A DNA stretch of 64,000 nucleotides from Schmidtea polychroa (taxonomy: Eukaryota): assembly GCA_044892525.1 (NCBI GenBank), contig CM097885.1, positions 21,268,001-21,332,000 of the forward strand. The letters are read 5' to 3'. The first letter of the stretch is position 1; each line of letters starts with the position of its first letter. The translations under genes and the position numbers were made by a program. This document shows, in pieces, positions 2,830 to 55,189 of this stretch. The notes beneath the pieces are model-generated. The model had not been told where the DNA came from. It worked only from the letters and a program-made list of their open reading frames with translations, and did not search any database.

Positions 2830-4219
2830 GTCTTACCTAACTATCCATGAGATATCAGCGTGTGGCTAATTTGATTCTATGTAAAGCTATATTTCAGGTT
2901 GAGCGCGATTAGACCGGTTGGAATACATGTATCTGATTATGTATTTGCTAGCGGATGCAAAAATTTGTGGGTGTGAATTTCCAATCGCATGCGTTCGACT
3001 AGTATTATGACCGGATGGTCAATAGTACCAAACATTATCAAAAATCATGATAAGATTGACTCTTACGGTGTTCACATCGCCTAAAAAAATTCGATTCAAC
3101 CACGGGTAATAATTTGTTAAAAGTACAACTTTAACTATTAGAAACTCGTTTTTCCTGGCGAGGTGAGTTTAGTCGTACTGAGATGTGAAAACTCTGCCGT
3201 TTCTCCGGCTCTGATTGATCCTCAGGATGAGTCTAAAGAGGCAAAACTATTTTAGTTTGAATTTCTCAAGTTCGTTGTGACGTGATTTATCAGAAAACGA
3301 TTTTTAGTCTAAATAGCACTGTTTGCCGTATTTACAATTTTTATCGTTATGTGATGACGAGGAATCTTACTGATAAAGTTCGCGAATCCTTGTACCGGAA
3401 TTTCTGCGAGAACGAACTGACGGTAAACGCGATTTTCGACGATCAGAAATGACGACCTGCGAGATTTATGTTCTTGGAATGACACGAGACGAACGATGAT
3501 TCGGCCACCCTAATCATTGCGAAAAACCCACGAGTAACGTTTTCGAAAAATTCATATTCATTTTAGTCCAAAATAATTTTATTTGATCGACTCAAGTCCC
3601 TTTCTCGCTCCTGTGGCGACAGATCAGTGAGGAAACCCCCACAATGATTTTTGGGCGACTAATAATGATTTTGGGTCGCTATTTATACCATTTTTGTGTT
3701 TATGAGAATTAAATTAATATATTTTATAAGTGTACTCAAATGTTATTATTGTAAATTGTGTGATTATAAGAAGTATGATTAGTTATTGTAACAATTGCTA
3801 AAAAATTAATATAAAATTATTATTCATTATTACTGATTATAAGGCATATATTTTTTTCTTAATTACAATTGTTAGAAATTAAATTTTAAAATATGTTTTT
3901 TGGATTACAATTGTTGAAAATTACTTATGTTTTCTCTTGATTATAATTGAATTATTTTCCAGTGGCATTTACAATTTTTTTCGTTGTATCAATTTTAAAC
4001 CATATGCTTTTTTAGACTTATATTTTTTAATTAGTAATAATTAATTAATTCCCAATATATATTTTTATATTTGAATGTACATATACATTAATAAAAACAT
4101 AACCCAAAATAAAATATACATCAAAACATAAAATAAATAAGATACAACGATAAAGTATTAAGCCAATAATCAAGGATAATTGCAATAATTTAAATTAAGT
4201 AAATTATTACACATAATTG

Positions 4220-7026: not shown

Positions 7027-7460
7027 GTGGATATTGAATCTACAGTAGTTATGCTGGTTGTTGATATCTTTTTCCCTATTGGTTTTTTTATTCTAGGTCT
7101 GATTATTGTAGTAGTTTTTATTCTTTTGCACCTTATCTGTGATGTGTCAACTAGTGTATTCCATTGTGCACAAAGTGTGTAATTAGTGTTAGGCTGTAGA
7201 TTTATGAATTCAACATTATCTCCTCTTTCAAATTCATTAGTCGATCTATTCTCAATTTTTTTTATAAGTTTGGGTATATTGTCCCTAGTTTCTAGATATA
7301 AGTCTCTTATTGGTGATTTATTTAGGTTATATACTTTAATCTTATACGGTGAAATGTTGATTAAAATATCTTCAGCCATGTATTCTACTGAGTGTATGTT
7401 CTCAGTTTCTACTTCAGTTGATCTACACAACCCTATAATTATTAGAAATGTCACTGCCAT
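6246..7460 (-). pseudogene. Type I membrane protein: signal peptide, fibronectin type III-like domain, Ser/Thr stalk, TM helix, basic tail (frameshifted, partly duplicated)
   Basis: MAVTFLIIIGLCRS signal-like start; FINLQPNTNYTLCAQ FN3 signature; STTSITTVDSIST stalk. WPFYVIATSVLSFAILAIVTSVQVY-KKYKWKRQR lies in an adjacent frame (6683..6895 and 6246..6539). Confidence 0.65.
6361..7116. repeat. Near-perfect ~350-bp tandem duplication; second copy has an expanded (TA)n
   Basis: 6361-6707 matches 6717-7116 (both start taccgctgccttttcc). The short TA run at ~6606 is expanded to ~60 bp at 6963-7023. Confidence 0.95.
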
Positions 7461-7534
7461 TATCAGTGCTTTTTGTGATCGTAATCCATATTTGTGAGGT
7501 GGTTTTTCTACTCACTCTGTTATCATTTTTATAT

Positions 7535-7855
7535 CTATGTCATTATCCTGATTTTTTGGAACTTCTTGCTCATGTTATTTGCAATATCTCTTAAAGGCTC
7601 TGCTGCCTTTCTGTCATCTGAATTTTCGGCTATTTCAGATTTTCGAGGCCTTCCTCTACCTCGTCTCATCGTCTCTGCATCCTGCATATTTGCTTGTTTC
7701 GAGATTTTTTCTATTGTCTCATGTAAGTTATCATATTTAGTATCGATAGGTTTAAAGATTTCATCGCTAACTGTTGGTGATTTCATTGGCCCTCCTGAAG
7801 AAGCATCCCACAACCTAAATAATTTATCATAGTCATTTTCGTCGTTTATACTCAT
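7535..7855 (-). CDS. Small AT-hook protein (106 aa)
   Basis: RRGRGRPRK AT-hook; ATG in a ccaccATG context directly abutting the structured motif. Confidence 0.6.
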   Translation of the reverse strand: MSINDENDYDKLFRLWDASSGGPMKSPTVSDEIFKPIDTKYDNLHETIEKISKQANMQDAETMRRGRGRPRKSEIAENSDDRKAAEPLRDIANNMSKKFQKIRIMT

Positions 7856-8057
7856 GGTGGGTTACTGATGATCAAATGATTAAGTGCTGTTACCAGCGTA
7901 ACCCAAAATACAACGTTAGATTCCGCTTGGTACCCGTTGAGTAATCAACGTTGGTACTGTACCAAGGGGTTGAGTACCCGCGAAAAGTGAGCGCATCGAG
8001 GCACTATAATCGTCGAGCACTCTATGGGTTCACGGACTACCGTTAGGTCCCTTATCA
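7853..8057 (+). ncRNA. Conserved structured motif, copy A
   Basis: Stems TGGGTTAC/GTAACCCA and GCTG-ttac-CAGC; core 7926-7966 CTTGGTAC-C-CGTTGA-gtaa-TCAACG-TTGGTACT-GTACCAAG; then GTGAGC/GTTCAC and GGACT/GGTCC. Confidence 0.65.
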
Positions 8058-8236
8058 AAATTGTTTTCCCAACCTTATGCACAAACTCTCGTTTCTCAGG
8101 CAATCATAAAATTTATCAGACATTATTTTAACGCTACAAAATATGTATTATTTTAACAACAAGCAAAAGAAATATCATTTTAGTACTACCAGGTATATAA
8201 AGCACACTACAGAAATACATAATACGGAATAAAAGT

Positions 8237-8665
8237 TCAACTTGGCCGGTTGGTGGGGCCGGTTAGTCCCGTCGTAGACATTTGCGATGAACCCGCTTGC
8301 CTTTCGTACTCGGCCAGTCTGGCCTTCTTTAATTTTTCACGGATGTTTCGCCCCAGCCGCTTCCTTTTGGGCTTATCTTTCGCGGCCGGAGGGTAAATTG
8401 CTGCCAACTCCACGGTCAACGGCCGGATTTGACTTATTGTGGCTCCATGAACCGCTTGTTCATTGCGTTCGGTTTCTAACTCGCGGAGTTGGAGGACCTG
8501 CGCCAGCTTCTTTTTCATATCCTGGGGACTAAACCAGGTGCTTTCTAGTTCCCGGCACCGTCCCTTGAGTCTGTCCACTCGGACTCGGAGATCCTCGGCC
8601 TGTTTTTGTGCTTCTTCCCTGTCCTTCCGTAGGTTCTCCAATAGTTTGAACACTAAAAGAAACAT
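8237..8665 (-). CDS. Coiled-coil protein with LESTWFSP motif and basic tail (type 1); likely terminal exon starting at 8652
   Basis: Heptad-rich LENLRKDREEAQKQAEDLRVRVDRLKGRCRELESTWFSPQDM; KPKRKRLG tail; tttcttttag acceptor in the same phase as the paralogue at 18267. Confidence 0.65.
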   Translation of the reverse strand: MFLLVFKLLENLRKDREEAQKQAEDLRVRVDRLKGRCRELESTWFSPQDMKKKLAQVLQLRELETERNEQAVHGATISQIRPLTVELAAIYPPAAKDKPKRKRLGRNIREKLKKARLAEYERQAGSSQMSTTGLTGPTNRPS

Positions 8666-9049
8666 TCTTAGATTATGTTATTACATCATGATATTCGCTT
8701 GATAAGATCGATACTGGTTATAAAGACATTTTATCATTATTAAAGACCAACCCATTTTTACGATAATTTATTAAAGAAGAAACTCATTCAAAGTAAAGTT
8801 CATTATCAAATCAAATCTTATTAATTCACTACAGAGGAGATTTGTTCAGAGTAGAGTTCATGTCTATCGCGAGTTAGAATTGAGGACGAGTTAGGCCGGG
8901 TACTTTTTCAATAATGACTAAGGAGATATGGACAACTATATATAACTGAATTATATACGACAAATAACCACATTACTAATAATAACTCAGTGATATATGA
9001 CTACTGATATTAATAGTAACAACAATATTAATGATACTAGTAATGGTAC

Positions 9050-9080
<31 letters not shown>

Positions 9081-9199
9081 GTGATAATAACCATGATATT
9101 ATAATGACCTTATAATTATTATCTATTTGTAATTTATGGCTAAAACTTTTATGCCAAGGGCAAACTATTATAGTTATTTGTATTTTGTATATTTACCGC

Positions 9200-9850
9200 T
9201 AATAGTTAATCATAACCTTTATAATTTATATTTATACCTGGATGGGGATTATTGTATTAATCTTGTAGTTTACATTTATAAGTATTTCATATATAAGTAA
9301 TTACAACTTATAATTTTATCTTCCGCAAGTTACGATTTGATGGTTCATGATGGATAAAAGTGCGTTTTATACTTCCTGATCTTTGATTTTTTCAGTTTTA
9401 TGGCTTTATATTTTACGATTTATAACGTTATTTTCATAATTTATAACTTTGTATTTGGCCAGTTATAACTCTACATTCATGATTTATAAGTTCATAACTT
9501 TCTATTTTATCATTTATGACTTTACATTTACGATTTATAAGTTTATAACTTTATATTTTGCCATTTACAACTTTACATTTGCGATTTATAAGTTTATATT
9601 TTAGGATTTGTAACTTTATATTTTCTAATTTCTAATTTTAGATTTTGTAATTTATAACTCTATATTTTATGACTCATAACTTTATAGTTTATGATTTATA
9701 ACTTTATATTTTATCATTTACAACTTTATACTTCATGGTTTAGAACTTTATATTTTAGGGTTTATAACTTTAAATTTGATAATTTATGATTTTATATTTT
9801 AAGATTTATAACTTTAGATTTTCCAACTTATAACTTTATATTTTATGATT
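9200..9850. repeat. Degenerate 22-bp minisatellite, consensus ATAACTTTATATTTTATGATTT
   Basis: Eight consecutive 22-bp units counted at ~9677-9850; more degenerate units continue upstream. Confidence 0.85.
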
Positions 9851-10490
9851 TCGATTTTTTGCAACTTTTATGAATTATCCAACACAGGTTCCCGGATTTT
9901 TCAGGTTTATTTCGTAACTAACTGCGAGTTCCACGTATATACAGGTTATATATTGTTAGCTATGAGTATATTCCGACACTCAAATTTTATATATCATTAT
10001 TTCCGATCCATAACTTACAATCGAAATTTACCCATTCATAGTTATATTTTCGGGATCGATGTACTTCGTGTCTAAAATTTTAACCTTATTCGCAACTTAT
10101 CTTTCATAATTGGCAGGGAAAATTCTAGTCGAGTGCTTATACATTTCTAAATATTTTAAGTAGGGGTTTAGGTTAATCGATTAATAGTTTAATTTTTTAG
10201 AATCGTAATATCTACTTTTATACTAAAGGAATTCAAAGACCTATTAAGTTCTACTTATACATATGCCGAATATTTTTGTCCTTACTATTACTCTGATTAC
10301 TATAAATTACTGTTACGAAAACCTAATTCGGCATATATCTAAGCATAACTGGTCAACCATCTACATTACTGTGATTTGCATAATTGTGTCAATTTAGGTA
10401 TGAGTTATACTCAATTTATCGACCTTAGGGTATTTTTCGTTGTATCGATTTTAAATGTTGAATTTAAATGTATGTTACGCAAAAGGTCGG

Positions 10491-10665
10491 GAAGAATATT
10501 GCTTCCATGGCCCCACTGTGACCACTTCCACAAACCTTAGTGTTGTGTGCTGAGTCAACCATTTACGGTTGACCTTAAATAAATACAAAGAGTCAGGCGG
10601 AGGGTTTCCTCGACCTAACTCCATGGCAGGACCATGAAGTAGTTTGACCTCCGGCTGACCCGAAC
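10491..10665 (+). ncRNA. Highly diverged relative of the structured motif (copy F)
   Basis: GGAAG/CTTCC and GTCAACC/GGTTGAC hairpins, AATACAA linker, then GTCAG-CGGAGG/CCTCCG-CTGAC enclosing C-CATGG-cagga-CCATG-AAGTA (cf. copy I). Confidence 0.4.
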
Positions 10666-12519
10666 AAAAAGAGCCGTATAATATCGATTAATATAATATA
10701 GATAATGCATGTGGGCATGTCCTATGAAATTTTTCCAAATCGAATGCAGGACTGAACAACGACGCAGGAATATCCATACGCCGTTGAACCTTCGTACATC
10801 GCTTAAAAAGTTAATCTAAGGAAAGTCAAAATATAAAATCGTTAAAAAAAATTTTTAGCATAGATGAGTTAATAATAATAATACACAAATGATAATACAC
10901 CAAAAAAAATGACACAATACTACTTCTATTGATATCCTGTTGACAAAAGGAAATTTTTGGCATAAAATAATGGTTAATTCTGACTGAAACGTGTCAGTAT
11001 ATATACCTATTTTGTACACGTGTATGTATTGATGCATTAAAACAAACTCGAATTCTTTTTCCAGAATTTTCTATTTTGCGATTTTGATATTTTTAATGGC
11101 AATTTTTGTGCCATAATTTTTGTTTTTATTTTTAAATTTTTATTTTTTAATTATTTTTCGTTAATTTGACGTCCATGATGGATTTGGAACGGTTCCAGAA
11201 CATTCTATTTTACTTTTAATTTTTATTCTAACTGGTGTTTTATGAATTTCTTTTTAAGATTTATTATTTTTAATACTAATTTAGTTATTTTCTCTAACTT
11301 TTATTGTTCTAGCTGGCTTTTGTGATGGTCATCGCATTTTAATGGAATGTTCTGGGTTTTTCTGGAATTTTTTCGGTTTTTATCGTCTTTTAAGTTATTC
11401 GAGTCTGTTTTATGTTTATCTGTGTTTATTTGGTTATTTTCGAGTTCTATTTTGCATAACCTCTTGCTTTTGGTATAATTTTATTTAATTTCTGTGTTTA
11501 GGTTTTGTTGTTTTTTCCTTTAATTATTATTGTTTATTTGGTGTAGTTTTTAATATTTAACTATACTTTTTGCGTGCTATGTACTTACACATTTCAGTCA
11601 CAATTAGAAATTTGGGTCTAGAAGTCAGTTCTAGCCCAACACTCAATTCTACTGATGTGTTAGAAGATGGGAGAATCCTAAAAAATTTTAAAATTAAAAT
11701 ATTATACAATAGGGGCAGATAGATATAGAATAAATATACATATTCAGAAATAAGTTAATGAAAATTGATTCGAATACAAGATAACTATGATGATGACAAT
11801 TTGGTGATCTATCGACAATTATGACTATATTGATTAGATTATTTTATTTTGATACATCGATTGTTTCTATTTTTATGGTGATGTGAATTTTTAAATAGCA
11901 ATCAATTTTGAACTTAATTACAGATTATATTGATTATTTTAAGAATTTAATGACATTTTATTGAAAAATATTGTCGACAACACACAAAAATAGATCTCTT
12001 GAAAGCAAATTAATTAATTTATAATTTTATCTTGTTATTTTACTTACAATTATTATTATTATTTCAATGGAAAATGGTGAAATTATTATTTATTATTATT
12101 AATATTATTATTATTATTATTTATTGTTATTATTATTATTATTATTATTATTTATTATTATTATTACTATTATTATTTTTAAGTGCACTGTGGCACAATA
12201 TTTACTTTTTCAACCATCTGGTTGATTATGTTTGTTTTATTTTTGAACTAAGTGCATTTTGTTTATTGCACTGAGTGCATTTTTATTTGTTTTATTTTAT
12301 TTTGCACTAAGTGCATTTTTGTTTGAAAATTATGTTGCAGTGGCAAATTAAGAAAGAAAAAAATAATATATTTCAATAAAAATAATAAATTTATAAATTG
12401 TGGTTAATATTTTCATATATAATAAATATTACCTATCCCGATTATTCGAACTTTTTGTCGTGTCCGTTCTAGTTTAATTACTAATAAGGATTTACCTTTT
12501 TAGTCTAGTACTACGGTTA

Positions 12520-13255
12520 GATTTTTGGGCGACTAATAATGATTTTGGGTCGCTATTTATACCATTTTTGTGTTTATGAGAATTAAATTAATATATTTTA
12601 TAAGTGTACTCAAATGTTATTATTGTAAATTGTGTGATTATAAGAAGTATGATTAGTTATTGTAACAATTGCTAAAAAATTAATATAAAATTATTATTCA
12701 TTATTACTGATTATAAGGCATATATTTTTTTCTTAATTACAATTGTTAGAAATTAAATTTTAAAATATGTTTTTCTTTTGGATTACAATTGTTGAAAATT
12801 ACTTATGTTTTCTCTTGATTATAATTGAATTATTTTCCAGTGGCATTTACAATTTTTTTCGTTGTATCAATTTTAAACCATATGCTTTTTTAGACTTATA
12901 TTTTTTAATTAGTAATAATTAATTAATTCCCAATATATATTTTTATATTTGAATGTACATATACATTAATAAAAACATAACCCAAAATAAAATATACATC
13001 AAAACATAAAATAAATAAGATACAACGATAAAGTATTAAGTCAATAATCAAGGATAATTGCAATAATTTAAATTAAGTAAATTATTACACATAATTGTCA
13101 ATATAAATGTTTTGAATTGTTTGAAGGATCTGGCTCATCTGGCTGATTTGATTGTTTAGGCTCCACATATATGTTTACTCTAAATTTGTTGCTGCCCGTT
13201 CTATAATAGTGGGTCAGCTCAAATTCTTTAATTTTTCTTCCTCTATCATCCGACC
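12520..13255 (-). repeat. Near-identical copy of 3646-4377 (exonuclease 3' end plus LTR-like AT-rich region and TATA/hairpin)
   Basis: Base-by-base match over ~730 bp with only a few substitutions and one small indel. Confidence 0.95.
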
Positions 13256-15366: not shown

Positions 15367-17317
15367 CAGACCTGGCCAACTCAAATCACTTTGCGGGCCA
15401 ATTTTTTTATCCAAAAATTTCAGCAAGCTATGTATTATATGAAAAAACAATTTTTATTGAAACATTTGTTTGAATTATTTCAGTACATAGATTTATTTGA
15501 ACCATTCCAAGAAAAACATTTATTTTTATATTGGTGGGTTACCAATGATCAAACATTTTACCTTTTCGTGCTGTTTCCAGCGTAACCAAGAATACAACCT
15601 TGTTTTACTGTATCAAATGGGTGAGTGCTCGCAAAAAGTGATTAGGAACCTGCTTCTACTCAATGCTACACTGCAAATTAATTATTTCCACCTGTAAAGA
15701 TTCTGGAACAGTGAAAACGTCAACTTGAAATGATAAAGAAATTATCTGAAACGTTTTGTCATATTTTGTAAGTTGTGAGAAACGACAAGTAAATTCAGCT
15801 GAAAGTTTTCTAATTTCATCAGCGTACTTTGCAAAATTAATAGTTTGACTGCTATTAAATTCTTTTAATAACGGAAAATGGTGAAGATTGTTATTTCTAA
15901 GTTGGGACTCAAATAAAATTAGCTTGGTTTGGAATGCTTTGATATAATTACAAGCATCAATAATTAAACTATCTTGCCCCTGTAACTCCTTTTTAGCTGG
16001 TTAATTTTTTCTACTAAGAAACACAGGTCCAACAACCATATTTCGTCATTTAAATTTGAAACTGGATTTCTCCAGCCATAAAATTTTCTATTTCCACCCG
16101 TAATTCAAAAAGTCTTTTTAAACATGTTCCGCGACTCAACCATCTAACTTTGGTTAAAATAGACAATATCGCCGTATTCCGAACTTAATTCGTCAAGGTA
16201 AGCTTTGAACTTGCGATGCTGAAGCGCATATGAACGAATATAGTTAACTGTTTTTATTACCACATCCATGACATGGTTCGTGGACAATGCCTGGGCACAT
16301 AAATTTTGCTGATGTATCAAACATTGTATTACACATATTTCACTGAGTTTAACAAATGTAGCTTCAAGTTCATTCAACTTTACAGTTCCTTTATTTTTAC
16401 CAATCATAGCAGGCACACCATCCGTTGTTAGTCCAGAAAGCTTCTCTAAATGTAAAGAATTCCAGGATAAACATTTTTTTCTAGCGTGAAGAACATTCTC
16501 TCCCATAGTGGTGTCTTTCAAATTTAAAAGATTTAACATTTCTTGTGTCACTCAGAAAGAATCGTTAACTCCACGAATAAATACAGCAAGTATCTGAAAT
16601 ATATGTACTTTCGTAGAAAGTTAGAGAATATGCTTTGAATTATCGAATTCGCTCTCGTAAAGTCACCACTATTTCATCTGAAATATCATTAATGTGACGA
16701 CAAATAGTTTGACGCGACCAACTTATGCTTGAAATCATTTTATGTTTATCTGGCATAACATCTTCTATGACAGCTGCCAAACATTCTTTTACAAATTCTC
16801 CGTCCGAAAATGTTTTCATGTTCTTAGCGATTAACATTGCGACAGAGTATCTTGCTTTAACAATATTAAAAGGTAGTTGTAATGAAGAACTAAACATTTT
16901 CTGCTGAGATTTTAATTCGGATTTTAACTCGGCTAACTTAATTTTTCTCAATTCATTATTAGATTTCACATACACGTCATGTTTCGTTTCATGATGACCT
17001 TTAACATTGTATTCCTTAAAAACAGCTATTGTATCTCGGCAAATCAAACACGTTAATTTTGAGTTCTGCATTATAAAGAAGTAATTTTCTTCCCAATGAT
17101 CGCTGTATTTTCTGTTTTCTTCTGAAACTTCTTTTTTTGGAATTCATTCAGGCCAAATATAATTAAAATTATGTATAATTATTCAAAATAAGTGCATTTC
17201 TTTAACATTTCATTACATAAAACAAAAATATTTACAATAATTTTATTACGTCTAAAGATATGCAATCAAATAAAAACTAATGAATTGTGGTATGTAGAAT
17301 CGGCTTGGCCACGCCTG
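15367..17317 (-). mobile_element. hAT Buster/SPIN-type transposon (GTF2IRD2-like transposase relic ~15655-17147)
   Basis: 13-bp imperfect TIRs CAGACCTGGCCAA / CAGGCGTGGCCAA. Perfect 8-bp TSD GTCTAAAC (15359-15366, 17318-17325; central TA typical of Buster). Motifs CLICRDTIAVFKEYNV, FSDGEFVKEC, TTDGVPAMIG, CLIHQQNLC. Confidence 0.92.
15531..15645 (+). ncRNA. Partial, internally deleted copy C of the structured motif, inside the hAT
   Basis: TTGGTGGGTTAC..ATGATCAAA..CGTGCTGTTTCCAGCGTAACCAAGAATACAA..TACTGTATCAAATGGGTGAGTGCTCGCAAAAAGTGA matches copies A and B. Confidence 0.7.
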
Positions 17318-17462
17318 GTCTAAACCATAAATAAAATCAATAAGGCCAAAGGTAATTTTATTAAACTTATTTCAATAATTCAATATATATAAAATTAGGA
17401 ACGTAATTTTACAGTTATTTAACCATACCTATTCTTATCTATCTTGTTTTGATTTATTTCTA

Positions 17463-17680
17463 TTGGTGTGTTACAGGTCATCCAAATTTCTACCTACTCG
17501 TGCTGTTTCCAGCGTAACCCAGAATACAATGGAACAGCTGACGCTTGGCACCCGTTGAGCAATCAACGTTGGTACTGTGCTAAGGGTTAGGATACTAGCA
17601 AAAAGTGAGCATGCTCGGCATGCTATAATTGTCTAGCACCCCCTGGGGTTCACAGACCGCCGATAGAAGGCTTATGTCCG
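17463..17680 (+). ncRNA. Conserved structured motif, copy B
   Basis: Core 17544-17584 CTTGGCAC-C-CGTTGA-gcaa-TCAACG-TTGGTACT-GTGCTAAG; GCTG-tttc-CAGC; GTGAGC/GTTCAC. Confidence 0.65.
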
Positions 17681-17809
17681 ATTTCTCTCGGTCCCCGTTA
17701 TGAAATTGACGTTATTGAATAATCAGAATACACGAGCATTAACATAACCACAACATTTTTATTTCGGATTACACGAATCGTATTGGATTACACAAATGGT
17801 AACAGGAGT

Positions 17810-18268
17810 TCATGAGGCTCTTGTAGATCCCTTCGGGGTCGTCACTGGTAAGGTCGGTTGAAGTGGTGTTTGGACCAGGCTGGCCTGTCTTCTAGCCAGA
17901 GCTGTTTTACCCGGTCGGATTTTCTTCCTAGGAGGAACCGAAGAGGCGAGCTCCTTATGCTTACGAAGTATTTCTGCCATAGGTTGGATCCTAGAGATTA
18001 CGTCTTGGTCGATAGCTTGCTGACGAATCTGGGTCTCCAGTTCTCTCAACGTCAGACGGAAAGCTCACAGTTTGACCTGGTCCTGAGCGCTCTGCAACTG
18101 TAACTGCGTAATCAGTTTTAGGCGCTTCTGCATCTCCGCTGGCGGGAACCAAGTGTTTTCGAAGTTTCGGCAATGGGCCTTGATTCGTGATAGTTTAGCG
18201 CGATACTCTTCCATCTGTCGCTGCGCTCGTTCTCGGTCCACCCGCATGTCTTCTAAGAGCTTTATCAC
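17810..18268 (-). pseudogene. Coiled-coil TWF protein, type 1 paralogue (one in-frame stop)
   Basis: KLLEDMRVDRERAQRQMEEYRAKLSRIKAHCRNFENTWFPPAEM ... RELETQIRQQAIDQDVISRIQPM ... PPRKKIRPG aligns with 8237..8665; acceptor ttttgattcag at 18268. Confidence 0.75.
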
Positions 18269-18854
18269 TGAATCAAAAAAAATTAATTAATGATATGCCC
18301 TCTCATCTCCACGCCCTATTGCTACCCCCTTGCTGTGGGGTACGATCACTAAGCCGCCACCTCGTATTAAGGTGTATTTAAACTCCAGATTTAGCCTTAT
18401 GGATCTCACTAGGAGGCATAATTTTTGTTCACATCGATTTAAAATCAATATTAAATGGTATAGATATATGACTTTATCAACCACACTTTAGCAATTCCAA
18501 TTCAAGATACTATTATTAGCATTCAAAATCGTGGCATGTTTACCCCAAATCCGTCCTACCCCTTATAGCAAGATAGGGCTCCTTCAATTTACTTTGAAGA
18601 GTATCAAATCTGTCAAAATTAGATCATTATGACAAGATGGTTATACATTTATATACCCGCCAATAAGCTATTTGGAGAAATCACAGAAAACAATACAATC
18701 ACCACACAAGATGACTGGTTAGTCAGATCACGAACGTTTCTCAAACGATTTCCGATGCGGCCTGTTCGTTAAGACTAGTCAAGTTCATTCAGAAGAGCGG
18801 TAACATCCATCTCCAATTGTGGATCAAGAAGTAACGTAGAGGTGGAAGCAGGTA

Positions 18855-31903: not shown

Positions 31904-32467
31904 TACTGTTACTACAGTTTATTATCACATTTTAGTTAAGGATTTGAAAATCAAGTACTAATTAATTATTATAATAAAGAAATCATGACAAGTATAATTT
32001 GATGGTCCAGGAAAATGCTAGTTGAGTTTGTGTTATGCTCATATGTAAATAGTGGGAATGTGTTATCATTATTGTGATTAGTATTGTTATTAGTACTATT
32101 ATCACTATAGTGGTTGTGAGTATGATTATTACAATTATTGGTGTATTTGGCATTATTAGTATGATGGTTGTCATTTTTAAAATATAATCATTATCATAAT
32201 TATCATTATTATATCAAAATATTATATTACTTTTACGGAATAATTATTGTTATTGGTAAAATACTAACATTATTAGTATTAGTATAATTAGTAGATAGTT
32301 ATGTGTACTACAGATCCATGTGCTCTCCAGATCTAGATACCCCCCTCTACTTTTTTAAAACTTTGTTTTAATTATCGATTATGTAATTATTCTAATTTTG
32401 TTTAAATCATTGATTACATCATAATGTTGGGTAGTCGACTAGGTCCACAAGAGTTTACAAGTTACCA

Positions 32468-32648
32468 GGGGATTATGGTCGAGAAACGAGAAATAGCTCT
32501 ACACCATTTTATGCTGACCGCTAATCAAAAACCCAAAAGATTACTCTCTCATCATGACAGCCATGATATACATCATGTTGGTGCTGTGCCATGATGGCGA
32601 GATAAGATGAAGCAGGTGAGCCCCTGCCTTAAGACTACTCCTTCACCC
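32468..32648 (+). ncRNA. Conserved structured motif, diverged copy E
   Basis: Core 32553-32593 CATGACAG-C-CATGAT-atac-ATCATG-TTGGTGCT-GTGCCATG; GATTA/TAATC outer stem; GGTGAG/TTCACC. Confidence 0.55.
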
Positions 32649-32939
32649 CATCTCGACTTCTTCGTTTTCTGACGGACGATCGAAGGTCTTACGTCACCCG
32701 CGTCGAAATTCAGTGAAATCCATTTTTCTGACATTACGTTGTTCGCCTAGAAATCTTCATTATCAGCATGTTCCATATCAAAATAAATAACTTCAACAAT
32801 AACACCAAAACTATAATTAATTATTACAAGATGTAAAACATTGAAGGAATCTCGTCAATGACGACTACACAAGAACAAAAATCACAAACAGCACACAGAG
32901 TCAAAGACGCATTACACGATTGCACATACGGGATCATAA

Positions 32940-33470
32940 CATAGGCGCAATCAATCACAAAGTAGGCGGAGACGTGCCAGCAAATAGTTCGTCCAAGTCG
33001 AAAAAATCAGCAACATCTTCCCATGAGGTACTAGGAGGAGGCACCATTCAAAACTGGCGAGTCGGCACGGTTGACACCCCTGCCTGGGTTTGTAAAGCTG
33101 CCTGGACATTTCAGCTATCAATCTAGCTTCTCGCTCGCCTCGCGTCGGTTGTTCGCGTTTGGAAGTTTTCTGCGGTATCGGGAGAGTGACCGATTCTGGT
33201 AAGACGACGGGCCTTGGAATCGCTTGACTAGTACCTGTGATGCTGATGTCAGGCGTCGTGGGTAACTCGCTACTATGATCATTATATGCGGTTGCTGTTA
33301 CTCCTACGTGTTGTTGTTGTGGATAACTTTTGAAATTCGATGCGTACTATGCCGATATTTTATGTTTGCCGATGAAATACAGATCTCAATTTTTGGAGAA
33401 ATTAAGCTCCAGTTCTTACAAATGGAGAGAAAATGAAGAAGACCTTCCTTAGCCATTGAGAGATTATCTT
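32940..33470 (-). pseudogene. Probable decayed coiled-coil/basic-tail ORF of the same element family
   Basis: Pro/Thr-rich stretch then KREQPTRGEREAR (cf. KRKRHTRAERYKKR at 18.9 kb); lies ~300 bp from motif copy E as in other copies. Confidence 0.35.
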
Positions 33471-34614
33471 CACGATTACACAATATTATTGTCATTGTTA
33501 CGATTATCAAAAAAAATCTCCTGGCGGTGACAGATCAGGGGGAAACCCCCGCGATGACCCGATCTATTCCGCCGCGATTCTGAAACAATGATTGACCTTC
33601 TCGCAAAAGGAACAACGAATGTCCCTCAAGCTGTGACCTTTCAAGTATCAGTTTCGTGGAATATTAGAAAATATAATACCATTGAGCTTCAATAAAATGT
33701 TTAATTGTTTGATCTTTCTTTTGTAAATAAATCATGATTACGTTTAATAAATATTCAATATGAATTTACTTATGAAATAACAGAAAAGAAAACGATCCAT
33801 TAATGTTTAATATTTTTACGAATCTTTAAATTATTTTACATTTGTAAATGTGTTAAAAAATCATGCAACGTACAAATAAAAAGTTTACTGTCTGCCTGAA
33901 ATTCTGAATGATAATAGAATGGATCTCCTTTCGAAAAATTTGCTCTCAAAATGTTGAATCCTCGAGTGATCTGTTGGATGTCTGAATTTGTAGTGTTCCT
34001 TAAGATCTCGATAGTTAGTTGCTGAATGTGGATTGTCCTAAACCTAAAGTTGGATGGTTTTTTAACACTGAAATTTTCATTTCAGTGCTGTGTTTAAATA
34101 GTTAAATGTGAAATGAGCGGGCCAATCAAAATCGAGGCTCGTTAATTTATTTAATTTAATTAAAATCTATTATATATTTTATTGGTTTTTTCAAGTTTTC
34201 TTTACTTTTCTTATAATTTTATTTATTTTCTAAATTTTTTCCATTAACTGTTGTTTTTCCACTTTGGTCGGCTTTTATATTTTGTTTTAATTCTATGTTC
34301 TATTTATTTATGTTTTTATTTAATTACTGGGCTTATTTTATTTTTATTTTCTAATTTGTTTTTATTTTTAGTGGTATTTTTTATTGTTTCTTATTGTTCT
34401 TTTCTCTTTTTTCTTATTTGCGCTGTTTCATAATTTATTTTTGTCTTCTCAGCCCAGCAATAAATATTTTTTTATAAGAATTTTTTATGTCAATATACTT
34501 GAAATTAAATTCTGTATTAAATGAGACTATGACGTAATCAAAATTCTGAAATTTAATTTTTAGTACACCATTTTTGAATTTACACATCTTTCTAAACAAC
34601 TTGAGATATTTTCA

Positions 34615-36981: not shown

Positions 36982-39654
36982 TTCAGAATCTGACTTCTCT
37001 ACCTTGAGCTTCAGAGAAAAAGAAGAAAATACATCGTAAGATTTAATTATAAAATAATTTAGAATATAAACTTTGTTTAGATTTATAGATATTTCTCACA
37101 CACAATTTCAATAATTTACAAATATAAGAAGTATGCAGAAATTCAAAAAAATAAATGTGTTTGGTGATTACTTTATTTATTTATAATTATAAAGATATAT
37201 AACTTACATTTTAACGAAATAATTCCAGATAAATGCATAAAGTATCATAAATTCCTAAAAAAACACCTGAAATTTAATTATCAATGTTATATTATAAATG
37301 ATGACTAACAGTAATATTTAAAAACTTGAATAATAATCTCATAATTATATAAAATCAAAATTCAAGTCTTAAAAGTTACCTAAAATTAAAATTAAAAAAT
37401 GAAATTAAGTTAACATTGTCATATAAATGGTGACTCACCTCAACTGGTGTGCACATCAACGTATATTATAGACAATTTTAACTTTCGGAATTAGGTGTAG
37501 AGGTTAAGCACATACCAATCAAAATCATGCATTGATATTGCATCTTTATTGCATATGAGTAATATTAAAACTGTAAATTTCATTACATCATTAAATAATA
37601 ACTTCTATTACAGTATTTTAAACTATATTGAATCACTAATTATTGCAAAATAATAAATTATTTCAGTTAATGGTTACAAAATTAATAAAAATATTACAAT
37701 AAATCAAACCAACATAACGAAACCCTTCAATAAATTACAATAATGTTATAAAGTATTCATTAAGTTGCAATAAAGTGGGAAATTATTTCGGTAAATGGCA
37801 GCATGAAACTTTTCATTTATGAAACCTTTCATTAAATTACAACAAAGTATTAACATTTTTCATCAAATTGCAACAAAGTAATAACATATTTTGGAAAGAT
37901 TTCAACAGTTGTAAAATATTTAAACAATTTGTAACAAGATTATAAAAATATTGCAGCAAAGTAAATAACATACCGATGACTAGTTAACTATATGTGTTAG
38001 CACTGTATGCAAAACTGTTCATATTTTTATTATAGTATTTTTTAGTTGGTTTATGTGAGAATTTTATATTAGGGTATTAAATATTTATATCAATTCGAAT
38101 TTCTGTTTGTCACGGTAAATATTATTTAATAAAATTTCTCTCGGTCTTATAAACTTAAAAATAAACTATTATTGAAAATAATAAATCTTTTTGATAAATA
38201 TATTATTTTTTAAGTTTGTTCATTTCTCAAATATGTTTCTCAATATTCTATAAATTGATAATATGTTAATGCACTACTAAAACCTACTAATTTCTGCAGT
38301 TAATTCATAATTAATTTGAATAACCTGTTAATTTAGAATTCTAAAATTTAATAAAACTTTGATTTTTATAGCTTAAATATTATTTTAAAAATCCTAGTTT
38401 TAAAAAAAAATTTGTAAGTTTTATTTTAATCTATTTTAAAGAATTAAGATTTCTAGTTATAATAAATGAAATTTTTATAATTTTTGAAAATAATGAATGG
38501 TAAATTAGAATAATTGTCAACTCAAACAATATATAGATAGAATTTAAAACTCTACAAAATGACATCATTATTTATTCATACTCAAAACACCTAAACCAAT
38601 GCCTTTTTCAGGCAAATTTTACATACACATTTAAAAAATATAAATTATTAATCTATACTTAAGAAAACCTATTCTCATATTAAAACTAAACATTTATCAA
38701 AATCCTGAGAAATTCGATCGTTATCTCTATCTATTGGTGATATGAACTACCCTATAGAAATTTGTCAACAATGAAGGGTAAAATTTTAAGGAATTATATG
38801 TCAATTTTGAGTAAATAAAAAATACATTTTGAGCTTAAATCATATATATATATATATATATATGTTTTGCACTGAAAATATGCGTTTTATTAGGGGTAGT
38901 AAATAATTTTAAAATAAAAATTTAATTATCACATGTAAATCCCCCATACTATTTTTATAATTATTTAAACGATAAAAATCAAGACAAGAGAGGACAAGGC
39001 AAAGTTTATGCATTTAGTATTGTCAGGCCTAATGAGCAGTGACCAAATATCTGTGCCTGAAAGACACGGTGGATATTTGTTCGCGTCCATAAGGGTCGTC
39101 TGTGCCTCCCCAAGTAGGGTCAGAAGAACCTGTTCATCATTAGTTCTCCGTACGGAACAATATACCTAGCATGTCTGGGTAGTCAACTACCATCATATTC
39201 GAAACGTATAAAAAATACATTTCAAAATACATGCGTCATTGGCACTATAACCAAGTTAATTAATTCAATGACAAGAAGTTACAGAGGCCTCGCACTAGTT
39301 GGTTTACAACCGCCCACCACGACGATCAGCTTGTATTATTAATTAAGGGATAAAGAGGACCCACCCAACCCTATTATATTTAATTTACAAAATAATATCC
39401 AATGGTTTCTCACTCTTCTGGATTTTTCGGTAATCTATCATTATTTTCTCAAAATGTAGTAATCTCTCCATCGGGCCATTTGATCATGATTTCATGGAAT
39501 AAATCTTGCATAATTGGACGTATTTCTTTGTTTGGTGACATCATGACTTGTGTTTGTTACTTAGGGCTGTGTCATTTTTACATTTTAAATACGTTAGGGG
39601 TGATTTAGATATTCACTTGACTCTTTCCTAAGCACCTCCATGACTATTGCACTT

Positions 39655-39750
39655 TAAAACATTTGTGTACCCATGGCGACGACCATGTTAGTACTGTACA
39701 CAAAGGTGAAAAAACAATGAGCAGGTGAGCTCTATTATCAAAACTACTCC
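39655..39750 (+). ncRNA. Conserved structured motif, copy I
   Basis: TTTGTGTAC-C-CATGG-cgacga-CCATG-TTAGTACT-GTACACAAA (39662-39704), then ATGAGCAGGTGAGC..AACTACTCC as in copy E. Confidence 0.55.
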
Positions 39751-40199
39751 CAATTGTATTTTCTTTTTTCTTACGCCATTAGTCATTTTCTATTTCTACT
39801 TTCCACTTTTCTATTTTATTCATCTATGGTCCTCATTTCTGGATGTTTTCTATTGTTCCTTTTCAAAATTTTGTGCAGGGATGCGCCCATATTCTCTTTC
39901 GCAATTTTCGCCATTTAACTTATCTTTTATTTCTAAATCGGCGGTTACCCTTTACTCGGTTCTACTCTGGAACCAAAAAAATTATCTTTACCCGGTTTCG
40001 CTTTTAAAACCAAAAAAATATTATTCCAACCTTGTGGAACTTTCTTTACCTTTTTTTATTTATTTATTTTCCTCCTTTGTGTTACTTGTTTACTTTCATT
40101 TATCCTTTATTTTCATTATCTCATCTAATTCATTTTATTCTCCTGTTTTCTCTGATTGGCTAGCACTTCTCACAACTCAGTCTTAACATGACCGGCTGG

Positions 40200-45430: not shown

Positions 45431-47027
45431 TTAAAAACTTGGTTTCTGTAATTCATTATTGTAAAATCTACCTAATATTTCTTCATTATTTTCATCGATG
45501 ATACCATATGTCATTGGAATTGTATGATGTATTTTATTTATAATAAAAATTTCATTTATCCATTTCGTTGTGAATCCTTTTTCAAATTTATTTTTATATT
45601 TAAATATTCTTACTCTATCACCAATTTTAAACTTTGGTTTTTCTATTCTTGTTTTAGAGCCAAAACTTGTTTTGGTTCTAAAACGGGGTTTGTGGAAGCA
45701 TTTAAAGGTGTTTCTTTAATTGAGCTATGTACATCATTATTATATTCATTTACCATCTTGCAATAATTCATTGTTCCATTTTTGTTTACCAATAGCAGTA
45801 AAATATTTCCACATTTTATTTTTTAACGTTCTATTTAATCTTTTAACTACGACTGCTTTTCTTTCATTTTCTGTTGAATATAATTTAATATCATTTTCTT
45901 GCAAATATTTTGTAAAAACTTTGTTATAAAATTCTGTTCCTTTATCACACCATAAATATTTTGGAATTCTTTGATGTTCTTCAAATACATTTTCAAATGC
46001 TTATGTAATAGAGTATCCTGTTTTATTTTCTAAACATCTTGCAAAAGCAAATCTTGTATATAAATCTATTACAGTTAAAATTATTTTATATTTTTCAGGG
46101 TCTGATGATTTGGTTAGCATAAAGACTAAATCTGCAGAACAAGTATGATCTTTTTCATAAACTTGAACTTTTAGATATTTTTTATTTTTTCTAAATTCAT
46201 GGTGTAATTCGTTAGCATATTTTATTTGTGATTCTGTTGGGATTAATAAACTTTTATTAGCAAAACTTGTTTTGCTAATAAAAGAATCAGTCTTGGATGC
46301 ATTCTCGAGGTGTTTTTCAGTGTCTACTTGTTCAATAATCTTTTTATTAGCAACATCTTTTGCCATTCTTGGTACTCCTGCACCTATGAGAATCATAAGT
46401 ATAGGAGGTAGACAAGCACCCATGAAGATCTTACCCTTCATTACTAATTTAACTAGAGCTCTTTGAATCTTTTCTTGGGTTGATGGATTTTGTATATTAT
46501 TTAAATCATGTATTAAATTAACATCAGCAACATGTCTATCTTTAAGAATTTTTGAATTGTAAGCAATGTCATGTTTTAAAGTTGCTTGGTCAATTCTATT
46601 TATTGGTTCCACTCCTTGTTTGGGATTATTATTTTCATCAAGTCTAATATCTAATCGTGTTCCAGGTCCAGTATAGTTGTGTTTAAATAAATGTCTTTCA
46701 CCTGGATATTTTTCAGTAGTAAAGGGTTTCAATAATGCTGACGTTAATTTTGAAAATTGTAAATCACCACCAATTTGTTGTTTCTCTAAAGCAAATCTAC
46801 TTGAAGGATTAAAATCTAACCATGGAATATTATTTTTTGAAGATGAAATTATTTCATCTTCAAAATTATTTGATGGAATATTATTATTATTTGATTGAGT
46901 TAAATTCTCTCTCTAAAGCAAGTTTAGATCGAGAGAGGTGTTTTTTAGTTTTAAGATGACTCGCTTTATGGTGTGTTGTAACATCACAATGACAAATTTC
47001 ACATGTCCAATAGCGTTTAGTAGTCAT
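45431..47027 (-). pseudogene. C2H2 Zn finger - parvovirus-like phospholipase A2 (PLA2X) - retroviral-type integrase fusion
   Basis: CEICHCDV..HLKTKKH; HNYTGPGT..PINRIDQATLKHDIAY..RHVAD; SADLVFM..LTVIDLYTRFAF..PKYLWCDKGTEFYN..VVKRLNRTLK..FKIGDRVRI..FYNNELQK. Confidence 0.85.
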
Positions 47028-47096: not shown

Positions 47097-48378
47097 TAAT
47101 CTCCTCTAACATTCTCAATTATTGAAATCTTTCCACCAAATAACTTTCTATCTTCTTTTCTTCAAGAATTAATGTATATATTTTTGCTTTAAAATTAGAA
47201 TCCTTTGTTATATGAAGAGTAACATCAACATTATTTATAGCCAATCTATCATCTTGATCTGAAACATTTATTCAGAATATAGAATACAAATTTTTGAAAT
47301 CTTCTAAACTTAATTGTGGTTTTATTTTGAAGTCTTGGCATGTTTGAATATAATTTTCATATGGGAATATATTTCGTTGTTTTCTATGTTAAACTCCATT
47401 CTATTTACTGGATAATAACTATTATTCAATTGAATTTGAATTGATTTTAAATTATCATCTCCAATCTTTTGAATAAACAAGTTGGTATTTTTTTGAAAGG
47501 ATCGATCTAATCCTTTGAATCCAATTAAAATATATCTTGGTCGATATGCTAAATTTGCAATCTTTATAGAGTATGTTGAACCCTTTCTCATGTCAAATAC
47601 ACTACAAATTCTATTTAAATAATTAACATTTATAGACTTTTTGGAATTTAATCTTTCAAGGAGTTTAATTTAAGCGTGTGGATTTAATGCCCATTCGGGT
47701 ATGTGTAATTCAATCGTTGTTAATTTTAATTTACCTTTTGTATCTGCAGCTCTATAAAATAATACTTTATCATCTTCTATTCTATTACAAAGTAATTCTA
47801 TGAAAACATTATGGAGTTTACGATTATAGTTTTGAAGAATCCAAATAAATATTTTAATTCAAAATAACCTTCAAATTTTTTAGACTTGTAAAATTTAAGA
47901 AGTTTATTATAACCATAATTTGTATCTAAACCATCTTTGTCTGTATCACCTTTATTTACATCAGAGATCCAACCAGTTGATTCACTATATTCATTTTTAT
48001 AATCACAACATTCAATACAAAATTTAACATTGAAGAATATACACCTGGATATAAAATATTTTCAATTTCTGATGATCCTAATTTTAATCTCATGTTGGAG
48101 AAGAAATTTGAGAAGAAATTATTTTCTGGGATTATATCTTTGTTTGCTTCAATCTCTAATTCAATATTGTAATATAATTTTGCATTACAAATATCTATAG
48201 GGTTTGATATTTGAAGAGATTGAAAAACTATATCACCTGAACGATTTAAATTTGAAATGGAACCAGAGGTTGGACAGATTTTAAGTACATCATTTTTCTT
48301 GATTTCATGAATAAACTGTTTATCATAATCAAGATTTAATTTATTTTTTTCTGAAATCTCAAGATTTATATTGTTCAT
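47097..48378 (-). pseudogene. Polinton major capsid protein (double jelly roll)
   Basis: NLNRSGDIVF..NNFFSNFFSNMRLKLGSSEIENILYPG; RPRYILIGF; LKSIQIQLNNSYYP; FKNLYSIF.INVS; multiple frameshifts. Confidence 0.85.
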
Positions 48379-49709: not shown

Positions 49710-51159
49710 AAATGTATAATTACTAAAAGGTCTGTTTAATTAAAATTTACCTATTTTCCCGGCTATACTGAGCTCGGTAAGGTAGGCCCAATTCTTATAT
49801 GGTGGTCGGCGGGTACAACAAAAAGCGTTCTAATGCCGAACCCTTTATTTACAATAATTTTCTAGCCCGCATAGTCGCAATGACTATACCAGTCACCAAT
49901 TGAGGAGAGTACTCCATAACTCTAGAGTTTTTAATATGTAGGTTATGGTGTCCCCTGGTAAAATGAATTTCATTTTAATTGCCTGCCATGTCATAGACCA
50001 ACAATGACGATGTTGAAATTAATTAGACGGAGGGCTGGCTCGGTTCATGCGTCTTTTAACAATCGCCACGACACTCTTGCTCAAAATAAAGCTAAACAAA
50101 CAACAAAAAAACTTCATTAAAATCATTTAGTTTAAATAAAACATATTATCATTTTTCATATTTAGATATGATTTTCAGCCTAATTCTATTTATAAAATTA
50201 TTTTATACTTTATGAATTTTATATATTTAATTTATCTCATTTTGTGTTTAATTTTGTGTATTTAATTTATTTTATTTTGTGTTATTAATATATTGCAAAA
50301 CTAACATTTTTAAATGAATAATTAACACCATATCATATATAATTTCTTGTTTAATTTCGTTAATTTATTTAAAATTCATTTTAAAATGTGTCAAAGATGT
50401 TATCTTAATTTAATACATCTACTGGTTTAATGCTAAGTATGAAAAGATGGAATGTATGAAATTCATATATTGAAAACGTATATTCTAGAAATACTAAATT
50501 AAGTATATTTTTTAACAAACAAATTTATTTTAAAATTGAATTTAGATTGGAAATTTAATAGTCTTGTTTAATAATTTATTTCGATGACAAATTTGGAGGT
50601 ATTAATAAAAGGTAAGATAAATAAATTATTGACTTTTTACACCTTTGATTTACAAAACTTGTGTCGTATATTTGTGTTTCAAAATTAGAAACATTAAATA
50701 GAAAATTAAATGTTGAAGCATCACTTATTATTATGGTTTTCCTATTAAAACGTTCGAATTATAATTTCTCTGAAAAAAGATGATAAATTTTTTGATTCAT
50801 AAATTTATTGCGAATTATTAATTTTATGTTTTAAATTATTTTTAACTTAAATTCTTTACCAAAAATCTGCATTCTGAAAATCAGTAAATTATTTTTGAAT
50901 GTAATTAGACTAACGTTTATATTTAAGTATATTTTTGTATTCGCATTATGTTATTAATTGAATGAATCTGACCCACCTTCAACAGCACTGCCTAAATTCC
51001 CTTATTAGCTTTGAATTCGCAGTCTTTCAAATTTTGCTAATTAATGTAATATTCAGGGCATATTTTCAATTCACAATCTATGTAAGAATCAGTGTAAATT
51101 CACGAAAATATATTACAGAGAATACACTTATTTTTATGATGTATTATCGCTAGAAATAC

Positions 51160-51332
51160 ATAAGTATGCCAAAATTCAGGTCGATTGAACATCAATTACA
51201 AGCGCGATTACCACTTGATGCCGGTTGAGTAATCAACGTTGGTAATACACCAAACGGATGAATATTTACAAGAAGTGAGCACTACACAAGTTTTCAAGCA
51301 TTCGTAAGGGTTCATAGGCTAGCATTTGGTCT
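51160..51332 (+). ncRNA. Conserved structured motif, copy D
   Basis: Core 51214-51254 CTTGATGC-C-GGTTGA-gtaa-TCAACG-TTGGTAAT-ACACCAAA; AAGTGAGC...GGGTTCAT; AGGCTA/TGGTCT. Confidence 0.6.
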
Positions 51333-51379
51333 GATTTTCACATTGCTCCCTTGTTATTTTCTATGTCATTTTCATTGTT

Positions 51380-54480: not shown

Positions 54481-55189
54481 TCTAACAATAGGAAAAATAA
54501 AATTATAAATATTTAGTATATATTTTGTAAAGAAAGAAGTCAAAAGTTAACTTAATTATTATATTTTTTTTACATTTAAGAATATTTAACTATCAATCAA
54601 TCTATTACTTTTAAGTTTTTAACCAGTCGACTAAAGAATATTGTAATAGATGAGTTAATGTACATTACTTAGCATATGAAGTAGCACACGAAATATCGAT
54701 AGCTCGCTCTACTAAATAATAACCAATATAATTTGAGCTGACCACTCGGAATCCTTTGTTTCACAACTCCAATGTGAATTTCGCCCATATCGTGCAATCT
54801 AATCAATCTCGTTCCTCCTGCTTCTAACCAAGCTTCTTAAATTTAATAAGGCATTTATAACAAACATGTGGTTCATTGAGATACAGGTTCATCCCATCGT
54901 TACAATCAATGCATTCTGGTGGGTTCCAGGTAATTCATATTTTACACTGTTAGGTTGTTGCCAACGCAATTTAGAATAAAATGTTGCTATACCATTTGAC
55001 ATCCATTGCGTGAACAACGTTGAAAATGTGGTGGATGTGTGAATACTCGTGAAAAGTGAGTTTATCGACAAATATTAAACCATCGTTAGAAGTTAATTTC
55101 CCATCTTTATTTTAGGTTCCTCTACTCGTAATTTCAGAAATTTAAAACCATACTAAACTAAATTTTATATAATTACAATAAATGACACG

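Follow-up and report, generated by a model that had tools for sequence, protein, structure and literature searches.

The U5 inverted repeats (U5-IR) and related stems of retroviruses have a role in the initiation of reverse transcription. In Rous sarcoma virus, for example, folded inverted repeats lie in the 3' part of U5 upstream of the transfer RNA (tRNA) site and are conserved beyond the rest of the long terminal repeat (LTR). Retroviral leaders are described, in the available part of the published account, as carrying a structured R/U5 region, a U5-IR loop and LTR conservation that is linked to stem-loops (PMC3601003). Covarying U5 structures of this kind have been much studied in retroviruses and, as far as the sources at hand extend, apparently hardly in Gypsy-type elements. 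The present analysis concerns a structured motif in 64,000 nucleotides of Schmidtea polychroa DNA (GenBank assembly GCA_044892525.1, 781 Mb with four very large contigs; contig CM097885.1, positions 21,268,001 to 21,332,000 of the forward strand), a stretch with a G+C content of about 30% that is called the window below and in whose numbering coordinates are given. An original prediction, made from the sequence alone, had marked the motif at 7853-8057 as an unplaced functional nucleic acid such as a ribozyme or guide. Its termini, the target-site duplications, a primer-binding site and pairs of LTRs place it instead at the U5-proximal end of an LTR, and the motif is very probably the folded 3'-terminal ~230 nt (U5, possibly with part of R) of Ty3/Gypsy-type LTRs, including those of Burro-like giants of about 36 kb.

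Like the retroviral U5-IR, the motif is, by prediction, a folded 3' part of U5 that lies upstream of a tRNA site and is conserved beyond the rest of the LTR. It differs from the U5-IR in its extent of about 230 nt, its four domains and 53 predicted pairs, its occurrence in invertebrate Gypsy-type elements and the spacer of 7-8 nt that separates it from the tRNA site. There is no sequence relation between the two, the likeness arising from position and predicted fold, and the motif is a further case of the known cis-acting structures of retroelements rather than a new class of RNA.

Two groups of LTR retrotransposons offer a comparison for the elements that carry the motif. Burro (GYPSM1) of the planarian Schmidtea mediterranea is a Gypsy-like element encoding protease, reverse transcriptase, RNase H and integrase, present in thousands of copies with an interior of up to 25 kb and a total length above 30 kb, and its accessory motifs comprise MATH_TRAF_C, BIR, RING-type and ankyrin, according to the part of its description that was available (PMC6431247). 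The same part of that source gives the LTRs of the Ogre retrotransposons of legumes as 1.9-6.5 kb (PMC6431247). The elements here share with Ogre a very long LTR, of 5.2 kb; Ogre, in contrast, belongs to a plant lineage, is without accessory apoptosis or ubiquitin domains and has no known relation to the motif.

Termini, duplications and the primer-binding site

In the window, the motif stands at one end of a solo LTR of 3.8 kb, assigned to the A family, which occupies 7855-11641 on the minus strand and of which the plus strand starts with TGGTGGGTTAC and ends with TCTAGCCCAACA. Homology and termini delimit this unit, the similarity of all 29 other loci beginning at 7843-7858 and running rightwards, not into the open reading frames (ORFs) on the left, and a 4-bp target-site duplication, CTCA, being found at 7851-7854 and again at 11642-11645. 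Full copies of the A-family LTR measure 5.2 kb, the copy in the window consisting of 7855-8905 plus 8904-11641 with an internal deletion. The conserved structured domain occupies the terminal ~230 nt when the LTR is read in the sense direction (7855-8085, minus strand) and contains the stretch that was first singled out. A second solo LTR, of 2.0 kb and belonging to the E family (32425-34459, minus strand, TGTTGGG..CAGCA), has its core at 32543-32601 and is bordered by the duplication ATAA at 32421-32424 and 34460-34463; solo LTRs at two other loci carry the 4-bp duplications ATAT (L031) and ACTG (L033).

The units have TG..CA termini in each of these families, reading TGGTGGG../..CCCAACA in A, TGTTGGG../..CCCAGCA in E and TGTTGGTTAC.. 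in I, and their two ends share a short imperfect inverted similarity, TGKTGGGYTA, of about 11 nt. Between the A, B and E families only the first ~230-270 nt can be aligned, A and B having a coiled-coil ORF in addition. Because the similarity is confined to unit ends, the motif is a conserved terminal domain of mobile units with integrase-type ends.

What lies beyond the end of the motif identifies these units as LTRs. A common flank was found in three of the 29 A-type loci that were fetched (L004, L009 and L020), although the units there are of different subfamilies, and on the minus strand it reads ..CCCACCA at the unit end, then TACAAATT, then TGGGGGCTCAGCCGGGATTTGA. The final 22 nt of this flank are complementary, in all 22 positions, to the 3' end of tRNA-Pro(UGG) together with CCA, the genes for this tRNA having been located in the genome and confirmed by ARAGORN. 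Since the match includes the post-transcriptionally added CCA, the 22-nt site is a primer-binding site and not a fragment of a tRNA gene.

The arrangement recurs across the genome, where counts were made by IUPAC patterns together with a control pattern. The TGGTGGGTTAC terminus has 3,019 genome matches (control 66), and CCCGGCTGAGCCCCCA joined to AAATTTGTA precedes 14 of 100 such termini among the matches listed, the spacer between LTR end and tRNA-Pro site being 8 nt on the opposite strand in the A family and 7-8 nt across families. In the I family, recognised by TGTTGGTTACT, 20 of 100 termini among the matches listed are followed, across a 7-nt spacer, by the tRNA-Pro site; of the E-family termini listed, 4 of 100 have the site. 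An earlier thought that TGGTGGGTTAC itself might be a primer-binding site on the plus strand was rejected, as E and I are without it and the true site is on the other strand.

The I family is, judged by its sequence, a second large family with the same U5 domain and primer. Its LTRs form same-strand pairs about 13.7-14.2 kb apart on contig C1, one member of each pair having the tRNA-Pro site. In locus L031, where the complete I-type terminus TGTTGGTTACT is seen, an intact-looking ORF for a linker histone (H1/H5) of 238 aa lies at 8161-8874 on the minus strand, 1.4 kb from that terminus.

Complete elements

The opposite ends of the LTRs could be counted in the same way and gave 3,319 genome matches against 11 for the control, with the internal flank TAAAACACTCGGGGGCCCATAAA common to 12 of 100 opposite ends among the matches listed (10 exactly, 2 nearly). 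Pairing the two lists of ends by coordinate and strand on contig C1 yielded at least 11 elements, the interiors of the 11 that were paired measuring 25.1-25.6 kb in seven, 27.0 kb in one and 10.9-13.2 kb in three. With two LTRs of 5.2 kb, an interior of 25.1-25.6 kb makes a giant family of about 36 kb (examples L069, L072, L073 and L032); interiors of 25.5 kb lie, for instance, near C1:21.45-21.56 Mb. A complete element of 54.6 kb (L004/L007, C3:48205948-48260534) has TAAT on both sides, and the stretch before its 3' LTR is 92.6% identical to that of the L008 copy over 1,354 nt.

The interior upstream of the 3' LTR in L008 encodes, in this order and all on the sense strand, the Pfam domains RT_RNaseH (E 1e-39), Integrase_H2C2 and rve, this RNase H-integrase stretch preceding the 3' LTR by 11 kb and containing a frameshift in the L008 copy. 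Past the integrase the polyprotein frame runs on into ankyrin repeats, zf-TRAF with MATH, and BIR followed by RING, and there are five ORFs without a family besides. In L069, three adjacent ORFs prove to be a single frame interrupted by single stops. Parts resembling BCL2 or env were not seen within the ~27 kb of interior that was read.

These elements invite comparison with Burro, which they resemble in the length of the interior in seven of the 11 paired elements, in high copy number (3,019-3,319 LTR-end matches) and in having RNase H-integrase, ankyrin, zf-TRAF/MATH and BIR plus RING on one strand. The architectural match is close, as set against the available part of Burro's published description. 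A structure at the LTR end is not part of the Burro description in the available part of that source (PMC6431247).

Before these pairs were known, the 5.2-kb unit had been taken for a non-autonomous element that was not an LTR, because a long ORF and an internal repeat are both absent from it and the first flanks looked unrelated; the shared flanks, the primer-binding site and LTR pairs overturned this. A Polinton derivative as the identity of the units was likewise dropped once these last two features had appeared.

Other material is found within and around some of the large elements. In the L008 copy, a 5' LTR was not found at the place that a 25.4-kb interior predicts, a tandem array of capsid-like and integrase ORFs standing there instead. 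A tandem unit of 2,559 bp (L072:1-7008 on the minus strand, and L074) lies antisense inside one giant element, and its ORFs encode a double-jelly-roll capsid-like protein (262 aa) and a 470-aa fusion protein in which a phospholipase-A2-like part of parvovirus type is joined to an integrase core. Both domains also occur in the window, at 46004-46912 and 47325-47669 on the minus strand, and the tandem unit is probably related to Maverick/Polinton elements. Inverted pairs of A-type LTRs, 33-58 kb apart, were seen at L012/L013 (C4:27.75-27.78 Mb) and L008/L009 (C2:108.78-108.84 Mb), the outer flanks of L012/L013 being 100% identical over 987 nt, indicating large inverted duplications as far as sequence can tell.

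Copies and covariation of the core

The covarying core of copy A lies at 7923-7969 and is read in sense on the minus strand. Its outer stem of 11 bp has its first strand at 7923-7933 and its second at 7959-7969, and between them stand a single C (7934), a 6-bp hairpin (7935-7950) and an unpaired, conserved 8-mer (7951-7958) that reads TTGGTACT on the plus strand and AGUACCAA in sense. The same layout is common to the copies, which have an 11-bp outer stem, a C, a hairpin of 5-6 bp, the unpaired TTRGTRCT (on the plus strand) and the returning stem, and the fixed spacing on which the original prediction was built is indeed seen where it had been placed.

A covariance model, R1, was built on a 59-nt core, as that prediction had proposed, and the whole window was searched with filters off. 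Seven full copies were recovered, all on the plus strand and with E <= 1.4e-12, their matches starting at 7916, 17534, 32543, 39653, 51204, 54985 and 59621, whereas the next best match had an E-value of 0.43. One further, truncated copy was found by nhmmer at 15532-15656, so that the predicted seven to eight copies became seven full ones and one truncated. The place at 24897, where a pattern match had found the word TTAGTACTGT, was rejected as a copy and is not counted because the covariance model gives no match there.

That the stems change in sequence and yet keep their pairing, as had been claimed, is borne out by an alignment (A4) of 17 diverged core copies from the window and other loci. 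In A4, 85.8% of cells are paired, compared with 67.3% in shuffles, none of 500 shuffles reaching the observed value, and sliding the pairing partners leaves 21-52% paired; double-sided changes occur in 14 of the 17 core pairs. Across the genome the loose core pattern was matched 5,156 times and its reversed control 34 times, and at least eight hairpin variants are visible among the matches listed, including further ones that preserve pairing (CGTGAA/TTCACG, CATGAA/TTCATG, CATGAC/GTCATG and CATTG/CAATG). For the 205-nt stretch as first described, a first look at the genome gave more than 2,600 candidates.

The claim that the motif belongs to no known RNA family also held, as Rfam gave no match in the whole window at the gathering score and, at E <= 10 over 7400-8500, just two matches at chance level, both outside the motif; a tRNA scan of the window found no tRNA. 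A hammerhead ribozyme had been considered for the word CTGATGA (CUGAUGA as RNA) in copy A and was rejected, the word being absent from B, G and X and no Rfam hammerhead match being found. The absence of a reading frame from the motif, as originally described, is accepted here, and the element of about 200-230 nt is a real, selected and non-coding structured nucleic-acid element.

Predicted fold and strand

The fold of the whole domain was derived from alignments made per family and at fixed length, because RNAalifold on a mixed-family MAFFT alignment returned only five pairs through misalignment. For the A and B families, an alignment (A5) of 15 non-redundant copies in sense orientation predicts four domains with a total of 53 consensus pairs. 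Domain 1 is a small hairpin whose CCUUCUAUCGG loop is conserved, domain 2 a long hairpin carrying GCUCAC, domain 3 the covarying core with the unpaired AGUACCAA (AGYACCAA), and domain 4 a terminal helix on the last eight bases of the LTR that encloses a 4-bp hairpin. Pairing is found in 96.8% of cells of A5 compared with 29-41% when the partners are slid, and nine pairs show double changes.

The terminal helix joins 7858-7865 with 7898-7905 around a GCTG/CAGC hairpin (7858-7905, minus strand; helices 7 and 8 of A5) and, read in sense in 5' LTR copies, is immediately followed by the spacer and the primer-binding site. In helix 7 the last eight LTR bases are paired in 97.5% of cells, five of the eight pairs never varying. 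This helix corresponds to the 5' junction helix of the original prediction and is present as GGGTTAC/GTAACCC, though almost invariant within the A/B families. The AATACAA linker described with it is conserved in A and B but not in the other families, and the GTGAGC/GTTCAC stem falls outside the consensus folds of A/B and of E; in 15 sequences it has a single compensatory change and two that disrupt pairing.

The sense strand of the element is taken to be the minus strand of the window mainly because the primer-binding site, the polyprotein and the ORFs of the LTR all point one way. The preference for the plus strand that had been put forward is not supported by this or by the consensus folds, which favour the minus strand by 16-18 kcal/mol (-54.4 kcal/mol in sense vs -38.2 on the plus strand for A/B; -60.8 vs -42.2 for E). 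The single-sequence z-scores are -3.34 in sense vs -2.05 for copy A and -1.79 vs -1.01 for copy B. The argument from GNRA loops in favour of the plus strand fails because the loops vary between families. It had further been stated that the motif, read on the plus strand, is antisense to the ORFs of its element, which is true of that strand, but the ORFs left of 7855 belong to a different insertion, since homology runs rightwards and the duplications bracket 7855-11641.

In A and B, the distance from the end is about 369 nt for a TATA-like word and about 300 nt for an A-rich, AATAA-like word, positions that would, at a guess, put the whole domain in U5.

Proposed function

Transcription would proceed from the minus strand of the window, making the domain an RNA leader that ends 7-8 nt before the 22-nt tRNA-Pro site. 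The four-domain fold, as modelled, may hold tRNA primer and reverse transcriptase in place for initiation, and perhaps has a part in packaging or dimerisation too, while the terminal ~10 bp (TGKTGGG..) would act, in the DNA form, as the end recognised by integrase. The conservation of the domain across LTRs that are otherwise unalignable would then reflect cis-functions for a shared system of reverse transcriptase, integrase and tRNA-Pro. The plus strand would be present only as a complement, either as strong-stop complementary DNA (cDNA) or as antisense RNA.

A more specific reading of the predicted fold, put forward tentatively and with rather less than even confidence, is that it constitutes an undescribed RNA element of invertebrate giant Gypsy elements, a U5 platform for primer loading and packaging that is co-adapted to tRNA-Pro and in which the invariant unpaired AGYACCAA loop might contact reverse transcriptase, nucleocapsid or the tRNA. 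If true, this could define a new RNA family and a marker for such elements. The placement at the LTR end explains an apparently orphan structured RNA as part of a mobile element and avoids a false lead to a new ribozyme. The domain is common to several very abundant families that use tRNA-Pro, including the giants of about 36 kb. Terminus, core and primer-binding site together form a compact signature by which thousands of LTRs can be annotated and solo copies separated from complete ones, and the domain is a defined target for probing the start of reverse transcription on very long retroelement RNAs.

Weighing the explanations

Several observations weigh against the domain being the folded U5 end of a Gypsy-type LTR RNA. 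Before the 3' LTR no polypurine tract could be seen, the conserved sense flank there reading ..ATGGGCCCCCGAGTGTTTTA|TGTTGGG and not being purine-rich (L071:1310-1354 and the listed ends); the flank abutting TGTTGGG, also given as ..AATTTTATGGGCCCCCGAGTGTTTTA, does not provide the expected tract. The usual spacer between LTR and primer site is 0-5 nt, and that of 7-8 nt is longer. When additional complementarity between tRNA-Pro and the domain was sought, the duplex energies were within or worse than those of shuffles. The reverse transcriptase domain proper and gag were not seen within the ~27 kb of interior that was read. Seven copies of the E family have a comparable predicted layout with double changes in only three of 80 pairs, and given so little covariation within E, most of the covariation lies between families and represents few independent events. 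The 45 pairs that both strands are predicted to form contain 14 G-U and 12 A-C cells, an even count which leaves the strand unsettled and removes the earlier argument that G-T wobbles favour the plus strand, and each strand has extra predicted pairs of its own that depend on wobbles.

This last ambiguity bears on the possibility that the plus strand, as single-stranded DNA, is the functional form. The molecule would be the complement of U5, the minus-strand strong-stop cDNA, and its fold would aid first-strand transfer or primer removal; the LTR identification would be kept, the difference lying just in the strand and molecule under selection. The helices are Watson-Crick symmetric, some plus-strand G-T pairs exist at the level of subfamilies (pair 14-48 of A4, in B17464 and L037), and 20 G-U cells fall in pairs predicted on the plus strand only. 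The consensus folds are nevertheless 16-18 kcal/mol weaker on that strand and the z-scores weaker too, and five of the six E rows of A4 have, at core pair 15-47, an A-C on the plus strand that is a G-U in sense, which makes this form unlikely. A further alternative without any fold, in which the stems are palindromic sites where a dimeric protein (integrase or a transcription or silencing factor) binds double-stranded DNA, with co-varying half-sites, is decidedly improbable. It can point to near-palindromes in the core such as TTGGTAC-T-GTACCAA in A, to a TGACGTAAG-like box in the domain of E and I, and to the terminal bases, which must bind integrase; the helices, however, are nested and long-range, helix 7 spanning about 50 nt, and the 11-bp stem encloses a hairpin and an asymmetric 8-nt loop. 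The hairpins moreover vary freely around a fixed unpaired 8-mer, the reverse of what is expected of a dimer that reads sequence.

An independent functional RNA of the plus strand (ribozyme, guide or scaffold), carried as a passenger of a mobile element, was the view of the original prediction and agrees with the strong conservation and covariation, with the absence of an Rfam match and with a consensus-like splice donor, CAG|GTGAGC, on the plus strand of the E and I copies. A passenger is, however, at odds with the fixed distance that separates motif and LTR end in all families examined and with the primer-binding site that adjoins the motif on the other strand; the plus strand folds worse, and B, G and X do not conserve the CUGAUGA of copy A, so that an independent RNA is scarcely credible. 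Cut-and-paste DNA transposons of Ginger type are also bounded by TGTNR ends and 4-bp duplications and, in the available part of their description, possess a Gypsy-like integrase and terminal inverted repeats (TIRs) of about 40-270 bp (PMC2836005). If the units were non-autonomous relatives of these, the motif would be a subterminal region bound by transposase, which the TGTNR-like ends, the 4-bp duplications and the imperfect inverted similarity of the ends (TGKTGGGYTA) would fit. The ends here are similar over about 11 nt only, compared with the long TIRs of Ginger1 and Ginger2, which unlike these elements lack LTR pairs, a primer-binding site and RNase H; the direct LTR pairs, the tRNA primer-binding site and the RNase H-integrase polyprotein contradict a Ginger origin, whose probability is next to nil.

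Further LTR ends and other features of the window

Besides the A and E solo LTRs, the structured domain is found at several further places in the window, each on the minus strand. At the end of a B-family LTR it occupies 17464-17691, the LTR starting at 17464 with TGGTGTGTTAC and its genome copies beginning at query positions 553-565, which correspond to 17452-17464 of the window; the other end of this LTR is possibly at 20980, where a matching target-site duplication was not found. The truncated copy (15532-15656) has the terminus TGGTGGGTTAC and is without the core hairpin. An LTR-end fragment of the I family lies at 39551-39905 with its core at 39653-39711, and degenerate copies of the domain are present at 51143-51353 (core 51204-51262), at 54917-55134 (core 54985-55043), where the terminus is TGGTGGGTTCC, and at 59559-59777 (core 59621-59679).

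The LTRs themselves contain ORFs in the sense direction. A coiled-coil ORF without a Pfam match lies inside the A LTR at 8240-8677 (minus strand) and is conserved in the B LTR, where the counterpart at 17813-18286 has 44% amino-acid identity. The full LTR of 5.2 kb in L032 has two sense-strand ORFs, at 8387-8833 and 9047-9541 of that locus; the LTR ORFs comprise one of 148 aa that ends in an AT-hook-like GRPRK and a coiled coil of 164 aa that is kept between A and B though their DNA is unalignable, which suggests accessory genes inside U3.

Within the LTR at 7855-11641, a tandem array of about 12-17 units of 22 bp is found at 9518-9891 (families D4 and D11). The LTR lies between two direct repeats, 3646-4197 and 12520-13075, which are 100% identical, at a distance of 8,878 bp from each other, and extend further at 70-80% identity, representing either a young duplication or another LTR pair. 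A protein-cluster look-up of the 664-aa ORF of the window returned only unnamed clusters labelled as arthropod. All eight copies of the motif are on the plus strand, and the LTRs of the window hence share one orientation, while of the ORFs of at least 120 aa 24 of 27 are on the minus strand, the window being a nest of mobile elements on one strand, comparable to a long intron or to a region resembling a single-strand cluster for PIWI-interacting RNAs.

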